This document shows positions 4,442-14,885 of a stretch of DNA of 64,000 bases, in pieces. A program made the position numbers and the translations under genes. The notes beneath the pieces were generated by a model, which saw only the letters and a program-made list of their open reading frames with translations, did not search any database and was not told the DNA's origin. The number at the start of each line of letters is the position of its first letter. Position 1 is the first letter of the stretch. Source of the DNA: Dehalococcoidia bacterium (GTDB lineage Bacteria > Chloroflexota > Dehalococcoidia > Bin125). The stretch covers positions 25,266 to 89,265 of the forward strand of contig CBDESM010000002.1 in NCBI GenBank assembly GCA_965242485.1, in the 5' to 3' direction.

Positions 4442-5461
4442 ATGCCTATCCACCTGATCCTTCGGTTCGGCTGGACTTCGGCGGCGCTGATCGCCGTCGT
4501 CGTCCTGATTTCGACTGTAGCCACGCGCTGCGCCGACGACGCCGCCCCGCAAGCGCAGACGATCACTGACGTAACAAACCAAAATGCCGGGTTATGGGCG
4601 GTATCGAGCATCGATTCCGACGCTCCGTGGCTGCCCGTGCTGGCCTCGCGCGAGCTCGCCGTGGGCGTCCGCCGGCTCGCCTTTTCGCTCCTGCCGCGCG
4701 ACGCCGCGCCGCCGTTCGACGCCGCCGCTCCGCCTGCCGTCCGCGCCGCCGTCTACCAGCTCGACGAGTCGGCCGAGCAGCCGCGCGCCGTGCGCTTCGC
4801 CGCCTACCTGCCGCTCGCGCCCTCGCCGTTCACCGCCCACGCCCACGCGGGCGCGACCGTCTCTGACAACGCCGAGCCGATCAGCGGCGGCCTCTACGTC
4901 GTGCCGCTGGCGCTCGACCGCGCCGGCGATTGGGGAATCGAGTTCAGCATCTCGGCCGGCGATGTCGCCGACACGGTCCGCTTCCGCTTCAGCGTCCGCG
5001 AGCGGCCGGCCGCGCCCGGCGTCGGCGATGCGGCGATCTCCGTCGCCACGCCGACCGCGGCGGATGGGGACGCGATCGCGGAGATCAGCAGCGATCCCGA
5101 TCCGGAGCCGGGCCTCTACGCCCGCTCGCTCGACGAGGCGCTGGCGGCGGGCGCGCCGATCCTGCTCGCCTTCGCCACGCCGGCCTACTGCCACTCACGC
5201 ACCTGCGCGCCCGTGCTCGACGCGGTCAAGCGGGTCTGGCGCGAACACGCCGGCCGGCTCACGGGAATCCACGTCGAAATCTTCCGCAACCCCCGCAATC
5301 CCGAACGGCTGGAAGAGGCCGAGGCGTTCGCCGCCTGGCGCTTGCCCAGCGAGCCTTGGGTCTTCCTGATCGACCGCGAGGGCAGGATTGCGGCGGCTTG
5401 GGAGGGCCCGGCCGCGCGCACGGAGCTGGACGAGGCCGTGCGGGCGCTGCTAGGCGGGTAA
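4442..5461 (+). CDS. Hypothetical exported/membrane protein with C-terminal thioredoxin-like (SCO1/TlpA-like) segment
   Basis: N-terminal hydrophobic segment. The C-terminal LLAFATPAYCHSRTCAP resembles a redoxin-fold Cys motif. Weak assignment. Confidence 0.45.
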   Translation: MPIHLILRFGWTSAALIAVVVLISTVATRCADDAAPQAQTITDVTNQNAGLWAVSSIDSDAPWLPVLASRELAVGVRRLAFSLLPRDAAPPFDAAAPPAVRAAVYQLDESAEQPRAVRFAAYLPLAPSPFTAHAHAGATVSDNAEPISGGLYVVPLALDRAGDWGIEFSISAGDVADTVRFRFSVRERPAAPGVGDAAISVATPTAADGDAIAEISSDPDPEPGLYARSLDEALAAGAPILLAFATPAYCHSRTCAPVLDAVKRVWREHAGRLTGIHVEIFRNPRNPERLEEAEAFAAWRLPSEPWVFLIDREGRIAAAWEGPAARTELDEAVRALLGG

Positions 5462-6326: not shown

Positions 6327-6374
6327 CCCGCGCCTGATTCAACGCAAAGCGACGGAGTGTACGAGATGCCACGC

Positions 6375-6444
6375 AAGTCAAGTCAAGTCAAGTCAAGTCA
6401 AGTCAAGTCAAGTCAAGTCAAGTCAAGTCAAGTCAAGTCAAGTC
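6375..6444 (+). repeat. Pentanucleotide microsatellite (AAGTC)14, perfect, 70 nt
   Basis: Read directly: aagtc x14 from 6375 to 6444, immediately upstream of the MTase-HNH ORF. All three frames through it are open (KSSQV cyclic peptide). Confidence 0.95.
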
Positions 6445-6451
6445 GCCCTCA

Positions 6452-7858
6452 TTGGGCCCGGGCGATCCGAACGTTGAAAACCGCACCCTCTTCGAGCACG
6501 ACAACCTCCCCGTCATGCGCGGGATCAACTCCGAAACCATCGACCTGATCGCCACCGACCCGCCCTTCAACAAGGGCCGCGACTTCCACGCCACCCCCGA
6601 CTCGCTCGCAAAAGGCGCGAGCTTCCAAGACCGATGGCGCTGGGAGGAGGACGTGCAGGCTGAGTGGGTGGACGCGATCAAAGATTCGGAGCCCGGCGCA
6701 TGGGCCGTGATCGACTGGACACGGATGACCTACGGCGACGACATGGGGGCGTTCTTGTGCTTCGTCGGGGTGCGGCTATTGGAGATGCGGCGGGTGTTGA
6801 AGCCGACGGGGAGCATCTACCTCCACTGCGATGACACAGCGAGTGCATACCTGAAGACGCTGATGGACGCGATCTTCGGGCGGCAGAATTTCCGCAATGC
6901 GATCAAGTGGTGCTACACGGGACCAAGCGTAGCCAAGCGTTGGTTCCCTCGAAAGAGTGATTCGATCCTCTTCTATGCGAAGAGCGATGCGAGTACGTTC
7001 AATTCGCAACGGAAACCGCACAAGTCAGGTATCCACAATAACGGAACGGTCTTCGGAAAGATCGACGGTGATGCCGAGCAAATGCGGCAACGGGAAGTAG
7101 ATGGGAAGCTTGTCGAGGACTGGTGGGATGATTTTGGTGCCGGAGCACATATCGCTAAGGGCGAGCGCACTGGCTACCCGACACAGAAACCGCTCGCGCT
7201 TTATGATCGGATCATCCGGGCCTCGTCAAATGAGGGTGATTGGGTGCTGGATCCGTTCGCGGGGTGCGCGACTACGCCATTGGCGGCGGAGATGGCGGGG
7301 CGGCGCTGGATCGGGATCGACCTTTGGGACGGGGCGATGCAGACCACGATTGAACGTTTCCAGAAGACGGTGAAGCTGGCGGCTGCGGATACTGCGGTCA
7401 ATACGATGGCGATCATCGGCCAGCTGCACCACCGTACTGATGTGCCAGAACGTACTGATGGCGGGGATGCGGCTGCGCCATATCTGGCGACGCCGACGAA
7501 GGGGATGCGGCGCAGGCCGTTGATGGGCGTGAGCGAGATGAAAGAGCTGCTGGTCGATAAATTTTGGTTCCATTGCTGGGGCTGTAATTTCGTCGCGCCC
7601 GACGCGCGCTATCTCGAACTCGACCACATCCGCCCGCGCAATTCCGGCGGCTCCGACGATATCGACAACCGCGCCCTGCTCTGCGGCCCCTGCAATAAGA
7701 TCAAGCGCGACCACGCGACGCTGGTCAGCCTCCGAAAGGCCAACGAGAAATCAGGCCACCTCAGCGGCACGCACCCGATCAACCTCAAAGAAGCCGGCCG
7801 CTGGACCCGCCAACAGTACGAAGCAGCCCTCGCCAAGCGCCTCGGCGCAGAAGCCTAG
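6452..7858 (+). CDS. Beta-class N6A/N4C DNA methyltransferase fused to a C-terminal HNH endonuclease domain
   Basis: Motif IV DPPF (IATDPPFNKG) precedes motif I (LDPFAGCATT), i.e. beta class, PF01555-like. The C-terminus HCWGCNF...LELDHIRPRNSGGSDDIDNRALLCGPCNKIK is a clear HNH motif. GC (~52-60%) is lower than the neighbours. The annotated start is a TTG with no SD directly after the repeat, so the true start and frame linkage depend on repeat number. Confidence 0.8.
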   Translation: MGPGDPNVENRTLFEHDNLPVMRGINSETIDLIATDPPFNKGRDFHATPDSLAKGASFQDRWRWEEDVQAEWVDAIKDSEPGAWAVIDWTRMTYGDDMGAFLCFVGVRLLEMRRVLKPTGSIYLHCDDTASAYLKTLMDAIFGRQNFRNAIKWCYTGPSVAKRWFPRKSDSILFYAKSDASTFNSQRKPHKSGIHNNGTVFGKIDGDAEQMRQREVDGKLVEDWWDDFGAGAHIAKGERTGYPTQKPLALYDRIIRASSNEGDWVLDPFAGCATTPLAAEMAGRRWIGIDLWDGAMQTTIERFQKTVKLAAADTAVNTMAIIGQLHHRTDVPERTDGGDAAAPYLATPTKGMRRRPLMGVSEMKELLVDKFWFHCWGCNFVAPDARYLELDHIRPRNSGGSDDIDNRALLCGPCNKIKRDHATLVSLRKANEKSGHLSGTHPINLKEAGRWTRQQYEAALAKRLGAEA

Positions 7859-7874
7859 CGGCGAGCCGATCGGA

Positions 7875-7902
7875 ACAGCCGACGCCGCAGGGCGTCGGCT
7901 GT
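7875..7902 (+). terminator. GC-rich hairpin (12-bp perfect stem, GCAG loop), putative terminator after the MTase-HNH gene
   Basis: acagccgacgcc-gcag-ggcgtcggctgt, followed by a moderately T-containing stretch and then an AAGGAG RBS for the next gene. Confidence 0.5.
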
Positions 7903-7930
7903 TCGCTATCATCAGATCAAGGAGCAGCCA

Positions 7931-8560
7931 ATGGTCAGCGCGCCAGCCATCGAGACCATCGAGGATGCGGCCGAGGCCGCCCGCGAGGGCCCGCCCGTCT
8001 GCTTCCACCCGAACGCGCCCGTCTCCGACGAGCAGCTCACGCAATGGGCCGGCCAGTTCGAGCTCTGGTTCGAGGACGGCGAAGAAGGAGAGATCATCAT
8101 CACTGGAGGAGCAGGCGGCGACTCGCCGAACATCACCTTGGAAGCGTCGGGGCAAGCCGCAAACTGGTCAGTGAACCTCCTCATCGGCATGTGCCGCGAC
8201 GCGCAGGGCGGCTACCACCCGCCGCTCGGACGCCGCTGGATCCCCGACCTCAGCTGGCTCAGCGACGAGACCCTGGCCAAACTCACGGAATCGCAGCGGC
8301 GCGGCGTCTGCTGGCCTGTCGCGCCGGATTTCGTGCTCGAAGTCGTCTCGCCCAGCCAACAACTCTCCAAGCAGCAGGAAAAGATGCGCGGCTGGATCGC
8401 CGCCGAAGTCCGGCTCGGGATGCTGATCTCCCCAGATGACGAACTGGTCGAGCTCTACCGCGCCGACGGCTCCGTCGAAACCTTCCACCGCCCCGACGCC
8501 GTCTCCTGCGACCCCGTCATGCCCGGCTTCACCATGACTTTCGAGCGCATCTGGCGCTGA
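7931..8560 (+). CDS. Uma2 family endonuclease, tandem copy 1
   Basis: 209 aa; PDFVLEVVSPS, GMLISPDDELVELYR, PGFTMTFERIWR. RBS AAGGAG upstream. Confidence 0.8.
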   Translation: MVSAPAIETIEDAAEAAREGPPVCFHPNAPVSDEQLTQWAGQFELWFEDGEEGEIIITGGAGGDSPNITLEASGQAANWSVNLLIGMCRDAQGGYHPPLGRRWIPDLSWLSDETLAKLTESQRRGVCWPVAPDFVLEVVSPSQQLSKQQEKMRGWIAAEVRLGMLISPDDELVELYRADGSVETFHRPDAVSCDPVMPGFTMTFERIWR

Positions 8561-8594
8561 GCCGTACCCGGTACCCTTCTTGCGAGGAGCAGCC

Positions 8595-9224
8595 ATGGTC
8601 AGCGCGCCAGCCATCGAGACCATCGAAGACGCAGCCGAGGCCGCCCGCAAAGGCCCGCCCGTCTGTTTCCGCCCGAACACGCCCGTCTCCGACGAGCAGC
8701 TCGCGCAATGGGCCGGCCAGTTCGAGCTCTGGTTCGAGGACGGCGAAAAAGGGGAGATCATCATCACTGGACCACCAGGCGGACTCGCATCCGATCACAC
8801 CAGCGAAATCGTCGCGGACATGATCTTCTGGTCCCGCCGCCGCGGAGGCGGCCGGGCGCGGGAGTCGCAACGCGGCTTCGACCCACCGTTCGGACGCCGC
8901 TGGGTTCCCGACGCCAGCTGGGTCAGCGAAGAAACGCTCGCCAAACTCACCGAGGCGCAAAAGCGCCGACCCTTCTGGCCCGTCGCGCCCGATTTCGTGC
9001 TCGAAGTCGTCTCGCCCAGCCAGCAGCTCTCCAAGCAGCAGGAAAAGATGCGCGGCTGGATCGCCGCCGAAGTCCGGCTCGGGATGCTGATCTCGCCAGA
9101 CGACGAACTGGTCGAGCTCTACCGCGCCGACGGCTCCGTCGAAACCTTCCATCGCCCCGACGCCGTCTCCTGCGACCCCGTCATGCCCGGCTTCACCATG
9201 ACTTTCGAGCGCATCTGGCGCTGA
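8595..9224 (+). CDS. Uma2 family endonuclease, tandem copy 2
   Basis: Start at MVSAPAIETIEDAAEAARKG (Met 8595). First ~55 and last ~100 residues are near-identical to copy 1; the central ~50 residues are divergent. Confidence 0.8.
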   Translation: MVSAPAIETIEDAAEAARKGPPVCFRPNTPVSDEQLAQWAGQFELWFEDGEKGEIIITGPPGGLASDHTSEIVADMIFWSRRRGGGRARESQRGFDPPFGRRWVPDASWVSEETLAKLTEAQKRRPFWPVAPDFVLEVVSPSQQLSKQQEKMRGWIAAEVRLGMLISPDDELVELYRADGSVETFHRPDAVSCDPVMPGFTMTFERIWR

Positions 9225-9260
9225 GCCGCTACCCGGTACCCTGCTTGCGAGGAGCAGCCA

Positions 9261-9887
9261 ATGGTCAGTGCGCCAGCCATCGAGACCATCGAGGATGCGG
9301 CCGAGGCCGCCCGCGAGGGCCCGCCCGTCTGCTTCCGCATCACTGCGCCCGTCTCCGACGAACAGCTCGCGCAATGGGCCGGCCAGTTCGAGCTCTGGTT
9401 CGAGGACGGCGAAAAAGGAGAGATCATCATCACTGGACCACCAGGCGGTTTGGCATCCGACCACACCAGCGAAATCATCGTCGACATGGGCCTCTGGGCC
9501 CGCATCACCGGCGGCCGCGCGCGCGACTCGCAGCGCGGATTCCACCCGCCGCTCGGACGCCGCTGGGTTCCCGACGCCAGCTGGGTCAGCGAAGAAACGC
9601 TCGCCAAACTCACCGAGGCGCAGAAACGCCGCCCCTTCTGGCCCGTCGCGCCCGATTTCGTGCTCGAAGTCGTCTCGCCCAGCCAGCAACTCTCCAAGCA
9701 GCAGGAAAAGATGCGCGGCTGGATCGCCGCCGAAGTCCGGCTCGGGATGCTGATCTCCCCAGACGACGAACTGGTCGAGCTCTACCGCGCCGACGGCTCC
9801 GTCGAAACCTTCCACCGCCCCGACGCCGTCTCCTGCGACCCCGTCATGCCCGGCTTCACCATGACTTTCGAGCGCATCTGGCGCTGA
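9261..9887 (+). CDS. Uma2 family endonuclease, tandem copy 3
   Basis: 208 aa, near-identical to copy 2 except in the central block. Confidence 0.8.
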   Translation: MVSAPAIETIEDAAEAAREGPPVCFRITAPVSDEQLAQWAGQFELWFEDGEKGEIIITGPPGGLASDHTSEIIVDMGLWARITGGRARDSQRGFHPPLGRRWVPDASWVSEETLAKLTEAQKRRPFWPVAPDFVLEVVSPSQQLSKQQEKMRGWIAAEVRLGMLISPDDELVELYRADGSVETFHRPDAVSCDPVMPGFTMTFERIWR

Positions 9888-14280: not shown

Positions 14281-14885
14281 CGGTCGAATAAAGCCCAGAT
14301 TCGCTTGAAGTCGACGACGAAACCGGGCATCTCGGGGCCGACTTCCAGCGTCAGCGGGCTCACGTGCACTTCCGGTTCGCCATCGTCGCAGAAGACGTAG
14401 ACCGTCTTGGACAAAGGGTCGATCATCCAGACGACTTTCGCGCCGTCGCGCATCCACTCGCGCGCGCTCTCCAGCTGCGAGGCGACCGACTGGCCGATGC
14501 GTCGAATCTCGACCACGACAGACGGGATTATGCGCGGATAGCCGGGTTCGCCGGCTTGGCGCAGCACCTTTTCGCCCTGCTCGGCGGTGAACCAGCACGC
14601 ATTGGGAGCACGCGTCCGCAGATCATGCGGCCGGCGAACCCCGGCGCCGGCGCCACTGACCAAGCCGCCGGCCTCGTCCGCCCAATTCATGAACTGCTGG
14701 ATCAGCATCACCCCGATGTACGGCGCGAAGCCGGGGCTGCTTCCAGAGAGGATGAGTTCCCCTCGCGCCCCGCGCTCGATGTCCAAGTGCGGGTTCAGCT
14801 CGGCGCAGCGCTCGAGCAGATCATCCGTCAGCGGCGTTTCGGCCGGCAGCTCGACGACGTAGACCGCGTCCTCGGCCGCATCCAC
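14277..14885 (-). CDS. Uma2 family endonuclease
   Basis: PSVVVEIRRIGQS, VVWMIDP, GPEMPGFVVDFKRIW. Confidence 0.75.
   Translation of the reverse strand: MDAAEDAVYVVELPAETPLTDDLLERCAELNPHLDIERGARGELILSGSSPGFAPYIGVMLIQQFMNWADEAGGLVSGAGAGVRRPHDLRTRAPNACWFTAEQGEKVLRQAGEPGYPRIIPSVVVEIRRIGQSVASQLESAREWMRDGAKVVWMIDPLSKTVYVFCDDGEPEVHVSPLTLEVGPEMPGFVVDFKRIWALFDR

Follow-up and report, generated by a model that had tools for sequence, protein, structure and literature searches.

The locus described here raises the question of whether one gene that joins a DNA methyltransferase (MTase) to an HNH nuclease amounts to a restriction-modification system in itself, and whether the three Uma2-family nuclease genes behind it belong to the same system. 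It lies in a 64 kb stretch of DNA (hereafter the window; ~69% GC, 0.694 overall) from a Dehalococcoidia bacterium of the Chloroflexota (assembly GCA_965242485.1, contig CBDESM010000002.1, positions 25,266 to 89,265 of the forward strand), in which an earlier note had described a lower-GC island and a possible defence hotspot made up of a phase-variable MTase-HNH fusion and amplified Uma2 genes. The reading we favour, at slightly better than even confidence, is that the MTase-HNH gene encodes a phase-variable, self-contained, single-chain restriction-modification enzyme from which the Uma2 array is separate. That the gene is repeat-switchable is held with high confidence, as is the independence of the Uma2 array, judged from genomic comparisons, and that the HNH domain acts as a restriction nuclease is an about even prediction. 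The features of the MTase-HNH gene are the following.

6354-6357 and 6366-6368, forward strand: ribosome-binding site GGAG and start codon ATG, a conserved GGAG-N8-ATG arrangement
6374-6444, forward strand: perfect pentanucleotide repeat (CAAGT)14.2 (TRF score 142, 100% matches)
6452-7858, forward strand: MTase-HNH open reading frame (ORF) callable from TTG, 468 aa, with PF01555 and PF01844
6539-7342, forward strand: beta-class N6/N4 DNA methyltransferase domain (aa 30-297; PF01555 N6_N4_Mtase, E 3.7e-40)
6890-7165, forward strand: target-recognition domain (TRD; about aa 147-238), where GC is at its lowest
7574-7708, forward strand: HNH nuclease domain with a Cys4 zinc site (aa 375-419; PF01844, E 2.1e-09; CWGC ... 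DH ... N ... CGPCN..K)

Investigation of the encoded protein revealed matches well above the Pfam gathering cut-offs for both PF01555 (138.7 bits vs 26.7) and PF01844 (37.8 bits vs 21.4). Motif IV, DPPF (aa 36-39, within DPPFNK), is located on the N-terminal side of motif I, FAGCATT (aa 269-275, within DPFAGCATT), with the variable block that forms the TRD between them, and the methyltransferase is therefore of the beta-class order. Pfam domains and motif order thus bear out the claim of a beta-class MTase carrying an HNH nuclease at its C-terminus in a single chain, in which both sets of catalytic motifs are intact. The closest homologue, P0001, is 94% identical. In an alignment of 30 homologues reaching down to about 50% identity (alignment A2), DPPFNK and DPFxGCATT are invariant, as are the HNH residues C375, G377, C378, D391, H392, N406, C411, P413, C414, N415 and K418. 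Since these HNH and zinc-site residues are invariant, the nuclease domain is not degenerate, and the suggestion that it might be catalytically dead, raised as a possible objection to a defence role, fails.

In the AF2 model the HNH region (aa 361-440) has a pLDDT of 78-91 and the linker ahead of it is of low confidence. This linker (window 7409-7560, aa 320-370) holds an invariant P-x-R-x-D motif (P332, R334 and D336; Thr335 is nearly invariant as well) along with a predicted short strand, and its remainder is modelled at low confidence. The best structural relatives of the MTase domain are the adenine methyltransferases MboIIA, M.BceJIV, RsrI and CcrM, together with Type III Mod proteins; the Asp of DPPF and these best structural matches suggest N6-adenine modification, N4-cytosine enzymes matching as well. 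The HNH part gave weak but specific sequence matches to the HNH domains of Cas9, McrA and IscB. Structure and profile searches returned no solved structure or profile spanning MTase and HNH together, and NCBIfam yielded no family-level model, the partial MTase and IscB/Cas9 HNH matches all falling below their cut-offs.

Regarding expression, the array (CAAGT)14, the sole repeat of such strength in the 64 kb, is placed between the GGAG/ATG at 6366 and the body of the MTase-HNH gene, upstream of 6452. It contains no stop codons and encodes (KSSQV)n in every frame. The distance from this ATG to the gene is 16 + 5n nt, and only values of n with n mod 3 = 1 therefore bring the ATG into frame; at n = 14 it is out of frame with the methyltransferase. 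The sole in-frame start 3' of the repeat is TTG 6452, which lacks a Shine-Dalgarno sequence. From this arrangement, ATG 6366 is in all probability the real start whenever the repeat number is permissive, in which case the coding sequence would span 6366-7858. The designation of the gene as phase-variable in the earlier note is hence plausible from the placement of the repeat and from the variation of n between assemblies (below), though the start given there missed both the repeat and the true start. A sigma-70 promoter scan found nothing upstream of ATG 6366, and no match to the 3' junction of the repeat came up when metagenomes were scanned for it. Of the 120 loci located by scanning for (AAGTC)5, none has an MTase-HNH gene, and the repeat unit is therefore no general marker of the MTase-HNH family.

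The syntenic site was recovered in six other assemblies by exact-protein look-ups of the closest homologues, bounded by a thioredoxin-like gene on one side and by Peptidase_MA_2, prfB and folD on the other. Identity of the flanks to the window is 89-93% in three of these loci (L001, L083 and L084) and about 74-75% in the other three (L085, L086 and L002), and the GGAG-N8-ATG arrangement is common to all six. The number of CAAGT units is 14 in the window and 6, 5, 8 and 5 in the others of the five repeat-bearing assemblies of this orthologous site, while L086 and L002 have no repeat and carry the ATG in frame with the methyltransferase. All five repeat-bearing copies are out of frame in the consensus, yet past the repeat each keeps an intact ORF of 468-525 aa.

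The same site differs in its target-recognition domains. Alignment A2 is hypervariable from about column 160 to about column 340, and among the closest homologues the N-terminal part (motif IV) and the C-terminal part (motif I, linker and HNH) are nearly identical and the central blocks unrelated. At the DNA level, positions 6801-7180 of the window align with L001 alone, though the flanks of L083 and L084 are 89-93% identical to those of the window. By these comparisons, at least six different TRDs occupy one chromosomal site. This bears on the lower-GC island described in the earlier note, for which the GC contrast stands and the figure of 52-60% proves slightly low: the GC content is 0.611 for the whole gene and reaches its minimum of 0.555 in the TRD part, against 0.70-0.73 in the flanks, and the drop is repeated in the six orthologous loci (0.60-0.66 vs 0.69-0.71). 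Because the TRD block is the GC minimum, the island consists mainly of an often-exchanged TRD cassette and does not mark a recent insertion of the whole gene, which occupies the site across lineages with flanks only ~74% identical.

Repeats were also detected at the 5' ends of more distant homologues, as follows.

L007, Paracoccaceae: (GTCCACCC)14, within the 5' coding region
L011, Nitrospira: (GAAGAGCA), at least 12 units, immediately past the ATG
L015, Acidimicrobiales: C15, within the 5' coding region
L021, Dehalococcoidia: C9, within the 5' coding region
L075, Flavobacteriaceae: C9, within the 5' coding region
L022, L024 and L048, Anaerolineae / Phototrophicaceae: polyC, in a promoter-like position upstream

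The intervals examined at the 5' ends make up 1.6% of the 1.75 Mb of loci, yet hold 15 of the 54 strong repeats, against an expectation of 0.85 (Poisson P 3e-14). One orthologous locus accounts for five of these, which leaves about ten independent. Since different repeat units stand at the same gene position in different phyla, their distribution indicates that convergent selection for switchable expression has probably acted on this gene. The gene is OFF in all nine cases with a readable intragenic repeat (the window, L001, L083, L084, L085, L007, L015, L021 and L075), the chance of which under random frames is (2/3)^9 = 0.026, and the ORFs behind the repeats are intact in all nine.

Several of these tracts have further features. 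The (GAAGAGCA)n array after the Nitrospira ATG is broken by an assembly gap, a run of N (L011, 9771-9980), and is therefore longer than the reads used could span. Upstream of the MTase-HNH gene, the polyC tracts at 9803-9817 of L022, 5485-5495 of L024 and 9935-9943 of L048 precede a conserved ..GAATG(T/A)ATGTTCTAAATT.. motif, and a similar tract stands ahead of an unrelated 770-aa ORF in L022 (277-296); such tracts may be promoter-spacer repeats. Very long tracts also occur beside other ORFs, namely C31 in L039 (3832-3862), G28 in L027 (5500-5527), G17 in L035 (17649-17665) and (CTGACCA)9 in L044 (13546-13608), and suggest that many more repeat-controlled genes exist in related metagenome-assembled genomes (MAGs).

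Regarding the extent of the family, a word-indexed search gave scores for 8000 candidates; the top 120 lie at E below 1e-141 and retain PF01844 in 119 cases, and the linker-plus-HNH module alone retrieved 235 representatives of 50%-identity clusters at E <=1e-10. When each species is represented by a single genome, relatives are encoded by at least 595 stretches. The best 80 of these come almost exclusively from MAGs of Dehalococcoidia, Anaerolineae/Phototrophicaceae, Poribacteria, Paracoccaceae, Nitrospira, Acidimicrobiales, Rhodothermales, Flavobacteriaceae and Latescibacterota; the records give no host, but the Poribacteria, Poriferihabitaceae, AqS1, HK1 and RHO1 bins bear names that we take to be those of sponge- or coral-associated bacteria. 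Literature searches on phase variation in sponge symbionts found nothing. The proteins of the family are 430-550 aa long, several genomes have two or three copies, and the source annotations of the relatives read just 'DNA methyltransferase' or 'HNH endonuclease'. A prophage-borne orphan methylase, which had been put forward as a further objection to the defence reading, was rejected: no phage or plasmid record covers 80% or more of the MTase-HNH protein, and IMG/VR contains only two contigs with a full-length relative.

Clustering of the neighbouring genes covered 82 loci. In these, no cognate endonuclease or methyltransferase gene is conserved beside the MTase-HNH gene, and the sole gene family that recurs immediately beside it is the IS1595 transposase (PF12762 and PF12760; within 600 nt in 10 of the 82). 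As no neighbour family other than the transposase recurs, the MTase-HNH unit is probably self-contained. In four loci, inverted repeats starting GGG..TTATA bracket the transposase and the MTase-HNH gene together (2.5-3.0 kb), giving the following IS1595-family elements with an MTase-HNH passenger.

L006: 8864-11890
L007: 9774-12718
L029: 9874-12341
L075: 8792-11678

These elements are flanked by 8-bp direct target duplications (TTTCTTTG, CAAAAATT, CATAAATT and TAAAAAAG), and their hosts belong to the Chloroflexota, Alphaproteobacteria and Bacteroidota. By these boundaries, the MTase-HNH gene is a transposon passenger in the four loci; for the remaining six loci with a linked transposase, searching for inverted repeats yielded no clear ends of an element. 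The copy in the window lies outside any such element. Passenger-carrying IS1595-family elements ('transporter IS') are an already known category, and no published record was found of MTase-HNH, or of any MTase, as an IS1595 passenger.

The second part of the question concerns the genes downstream of the MTase-HNH gene, which are arranged as follows.

7872-7906, forward strand: hairpin past the MTase-HNH stop codon, 13-14 bp perfect stem, loop GCAG
7931-8560, forward strand: Uma2 copy A, 209 aa (PF05685, E 7.2e-21; central helix type 'DSPNITLEASGQAANW')
8595-9224, forward strand: Uma2 copy B, 209 aa from ATG 8595 (PF05685, E 2.6e-25; alignment A1)
9261-9887, forward strand: Uma2 copy C, 208 aa (PF05685, E 1.5e-25)

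Both the strong hairpin and the three tandem Uma2 genes reported in the earlier note are present, the latter with PF05685 matches at E 7e-21 to 1.5e-25 (74.9-90.1 bits vs a gathering cut-off of 27). The hairpin has a predicted stability of -36.5 kcal/mol (z = -4.0), which none of 200 shuffles equalled, and is also found in L001 with one mismatch. It was not called by a terminator scan because it has no T-run, and probably serves either to terminate transcription in a T-run-less manner or as an RNA-stability element. The Uma2 genes follow with a period of 664-666 nt, and for copy B ATG 8595 is a likelier start than TTG 8580. The AF2 model of copy C (pLDDT 82.5) was matched by Foldseek to TT1808 (1WDJ) at E 2e-17 and a TM of 0.80/0.89. 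Alignment A3, in every displayed column of which P0136 equals copy A, has two conserved acidic residues, D105 (PD) and E136 (EVVS).

Gene order at the syntenic site does not support a partnership between the two families. Behind the MTase-HNH gene, the window has 3 Uma2 genes, L084 has 1 (of the same helix type as copy A) and L085, L086 and L002 have 0; L001 has at least one downstream by a match to the Uma2 hidden Markov model (HMM), its contig ending within the gene, and L083 probably has one, of which only the N-terminal 56 aa precede the contig end. Among distant MTase-HNH loci, Uma2 occurs within 10 kb in 6 of 80 and the arrangement of the window in none. The window holds six Uma2 genes (135-794 on the forward strand, the triplet, and 14295-14885 and 29213-29797 on the reverse strand), and adjacency to an MTase-HNH gene is therefore cheap. 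With copy numbers of 0, 1 or 3 at the site, few occurrences elsewhere and Uma2 common in the lineage, the adjacency is most readily explained as a lineage-specific insertion followed by tandem duplication, and not as a conserved partnership. The functional link that the earlier note had considered is thus largely contradicted by the comparison of gene order, a check which that note had itself proposed, and the defence hotspot is likewise unsupported: the other neighbours at the site, the thioredoxin-like gene, Peptidase_MA_2, prfB and folD, are housekeeping genes. No tRNA genes that might serve as island borders were found within the window.

The Uma2 arrays have a pattern of their own. In the window triplet, the first roughly 58 and last roughly 79 codons are almost identical (pN 0-0.05, pS 0.05-0.25) and the centre is strongly diverged (pS 0.38-0.45, pN 0.34-0.35), and the same conserved ends and hypervariable centre are found in five tandem Uma2 genes of L002 (1123-4418), 6 kb upstream of its MTase-HNH site. 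The Uma2 gene at 135-794 of the window resembles the last gene of this five-copy array, and the window therefore probably begins inside a second Uma2 array. The subfamily is small (38 sequences above 52% identity), and in its 38 members the variable part is a segment of roughly 25 residues with about six discrete types, corresponding in the AF2 model to a long helix (64-83), alpha1 of the PD-(D/E)XK core. This fits gene conversion of the ends combined with retained or selected diversity in one helix. A diversity-generating retroelement was rejected as the source of the variability, as synonymous sites are diverged as much as non-synonymous ones; the unnamed flanking ORF 4442-5461 is without a Pfam family. 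Under the favoured reading, the Uma2 array would have been inserted once behind the MTase-HNH gene in the lineage of the window and then expanded through tandem duplication, with gene conversion keeping the ends nearly identical while the alpha1 helix stays diverse. Lineage-specific expansions of Uma2 paralogues are already known in cyanobacteria and Thermus; literature searches found no published description of homogenised ends with a hypervariable helix in Uma2 and nothing on Uma2 function.

From the domain architecture, the conserved catalytic residues, the repeat-number polymorphism, the TRD alleles, the recurrent 5' repeats and the transposon carriage we infer methylation, cleavage, defence and actual switching by the MTase-HNH gene, along the following lines. 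The TRD would read a short DNA site, which the beta-class core would methylate in the cell's own DNA, DPPF suggesting N6-adenine, and the HNH domain, tethered via a roughly 45-residue flexible linker, would nick or cut unmarked DNA. Slipped-strand mispairing of (CAAGT)n would toggle expression at random, the full-length protein being made only at n = 1 mod 3, and because methylation and nuclease reside on one chain, modification and restriction would switch together. Specificity would change through TRD swaps by recombination in the conserved flanks, and the family would cross phyla as a passenger of roughly 3-kb IS1595-family transposons.

Several points weigh against this reading. The PADLOC scan proposed in the earlier note recognised the methyltransferase and hardly the nuclease, the protein being called as 'MTase_II' only, with Type II MTase models outscoring Type III models and nuclease models matching the HNH part weakly (E about 1e-3), and searches of the published literature found neither a beta-MTase-HNH fusion nor a characterised member. 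Differing values of n among consensus assemblies are evidence of mutability, not of reversible switching, and the finding that nine of nine genes are OFF fits a costly, mostly silent gene and equally fits silencing before loss or an unrecognised start codon. In addition, one HNH site cuts one strand, and double-strand cleavage would need a dimerisation that is assumed by analogy with the dimeric beta-class MTases, and a switch to ON in an unmethylated genome risks self-restriction.

Other explanations were weighed against a single-chain restriction-modification enzyme. The gene might be a phase-variable epigenetic regulator (a 'phasevarion' methyltransferase) that does not restrict, its methylation being turned on or off so as to alter gene expression in subpopulations and its HNH domain serving DNA binding or another role. 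A 5' simple sequence repeat (SSR) with allelic TRDs is the signature of Mod proteins in host-adapted bacteria, the names of the relatives (Poribacteria, Poriferihabitaceae and the AqS1 and RHO1 bins) are presumably those of sponge- or coral-associated organisms, and one chromosomal site in a housekeeping neighbourhood has been kept; however, the invariant His, Asp, Asn and four zinc cysteines of the HNH domain and a fusion kept in 119 of 120 homologues are hard to explain without nuclease activity, and it is typical of restriction-modification genes to occur in several copies per genome, to turn over their TRDs and to be carried on transposons, although the two roles are not exclusive. We regard pure regulation as rather unlikely. 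Slightly lower still do we place a selfish IS1595 stabilising or mobility module, either an addiction cassette that kills cells after its loss or a nickase that aids the spread of the element, of which the copy in the window would be a domesticated or stranded remnant. The transposase adjacent in 10 of 82 loci, both genes within one element in four, the genomes with two or three copies and the known category of passenger-bearing IS1595 all speak for such a module, but no transposase lies near the gene in about 70 of 80 loci, among them the window and all six orthologous ones, and a copy held at one site despite ~74% flank identity, with an intact ORF and a diversifying TRD, points to a function at the level of the host; addiction and defence are, moreover, both normal properties of restriction-modification systems.

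The two remaining explanations are poorly supported. That the Uma2 triplet works with the MTase-HNH protein, as accessory nucleases, decoys or anti-restriction factors, draws on the same strand and direct adjacency in the window and L084 (also in L001 and probably L083), on the nuclease-related nature of both families and on weak PADLOC matches of Uma2 to the candidate PDC-S03 (E 3.6e-07 to 1.5e-05, C-terminal half only). It is judged very improbable in view of the strong hairpin in between, the three syntenic relatives without Uma2, the rarity of Uma2 at distant loci and the arrays found elsewhere (five copies in L002 and three more genes in the window). Least probable of all is a decaying, frameshifted pseudogene with the repeat as its inactivating lesion: the ATG is indeed out of frame in all five repeat-bearing assemblies and in four other SSR-bearing homologues, but the ORF behind the repeat is intact in 5/5, with catalytic residues kept and distinct, functional-looking TRDs, the repeat persists across lineages with 75-93% identical flanks, and in five phyla independent repeats occupy this same place in the gene, which points to selection for switchability.

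Compared with known systems, the favoured single-chain enzyme resembles the Type IIG/IIC enzymes (MmeI, BpuSI and DrdV), which consist of a single chain without a partner gene and shift specificity via TRD change, in that MTase, target recognition and nuclease are all in one polypeptide. It differs from them in architecture, since Type IIG/IIC enzymes combine an N-terminal PD-(D/E)XK nuclease with a gamma-class MTase and the present protein a beta-class MTase with a C-terminal Cys4 HNH. With the Type III Mod proteins (ModA, ModH, ModM and ModS; EcoP15I Mod) it shares the beta-class adenine MTase fold (matches to 6K0W, 4ZCF and 7DSU), the many TRD alleles at one locus and the repeat in the 5' coding region; however, no Res (helicase-nuclease) gene lies beside the MTase-HNH gene in any of the 82 loci, and the protein is shorter (430-550 aa) and has its own HNH nuclease. 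Lacking both the gamma-MTase/PD-(D/E)XK build and a Res partner, MTase-HNH is therefore only a variant architecture. The HNH domain shares the beta-beta-alpha-metal motif, the DH...N...N residues and the two CxxC pairs with nucleases of the PF01844 type (McrA, Cas9/IscB and group II intron maturase; the HNH Type II enzymes KpnI and Hpy99I) and differs in being fused to a methyltransferase that would supply sequence recognition. The Uma2 copies, with PF05685 above threshold and a 1WDJ-like fold, resemble Uma2/DUF820/COG4636 proteins (TT1808 1WDJ; 3OT2; 6OKH; 9Y1L) and differ from the known families in forming a small subfamily with tandem arrays, homogenised ends and a hypervariable alpha1. The elements in L006, L007, L029 and L075 are like IS1595 passenger elements, from which the window copy differs in lying outside such an element.

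In annotation, the Uma2 triplet should be kept apart from the MTase-HNH system. A wider view, which we offer tentatively and consider less probable than not, would see an unrecognised class of mobile, single-chain, IS1595-borne beta-MTase::HNH enzymes serving as mostly silent, switchable standby immunity in many phyla (the MAG names suggesting sponge or coral symbionts), with TRD cassettes renewed at a fixed site, and, separately, Uma2 arrays as a diversified nuclease or cognate-recognition repertoire under diversifying selection. What is solid is a testable lead on a widespread, uncharacterised enzyme family and on phase variation beyond pathogens, which does not amount to a system of a categorically new kind. 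Should the fusion turn out to methylate as well as cut, a compact beta-class MTase and HNH protein of roughly 450 residues would join the single-chain restriction-modification enzymes, and its naturally swappable recognition domains would be of interest for enzyme discovery. Carriage by IS1595 would explain the spread of the family across phyla. Pathogens of humans and animals are the main source of what is known about repeat-driven phase variation in DNA-modification genes, and the 5' repeats in five phyla extend it to uncultivated MAGs, with names that we take to be those of sponge and coral symbionts, where this family would offer a test case of how a cell tolerates restriction that is switched on in an unmethylated genome.

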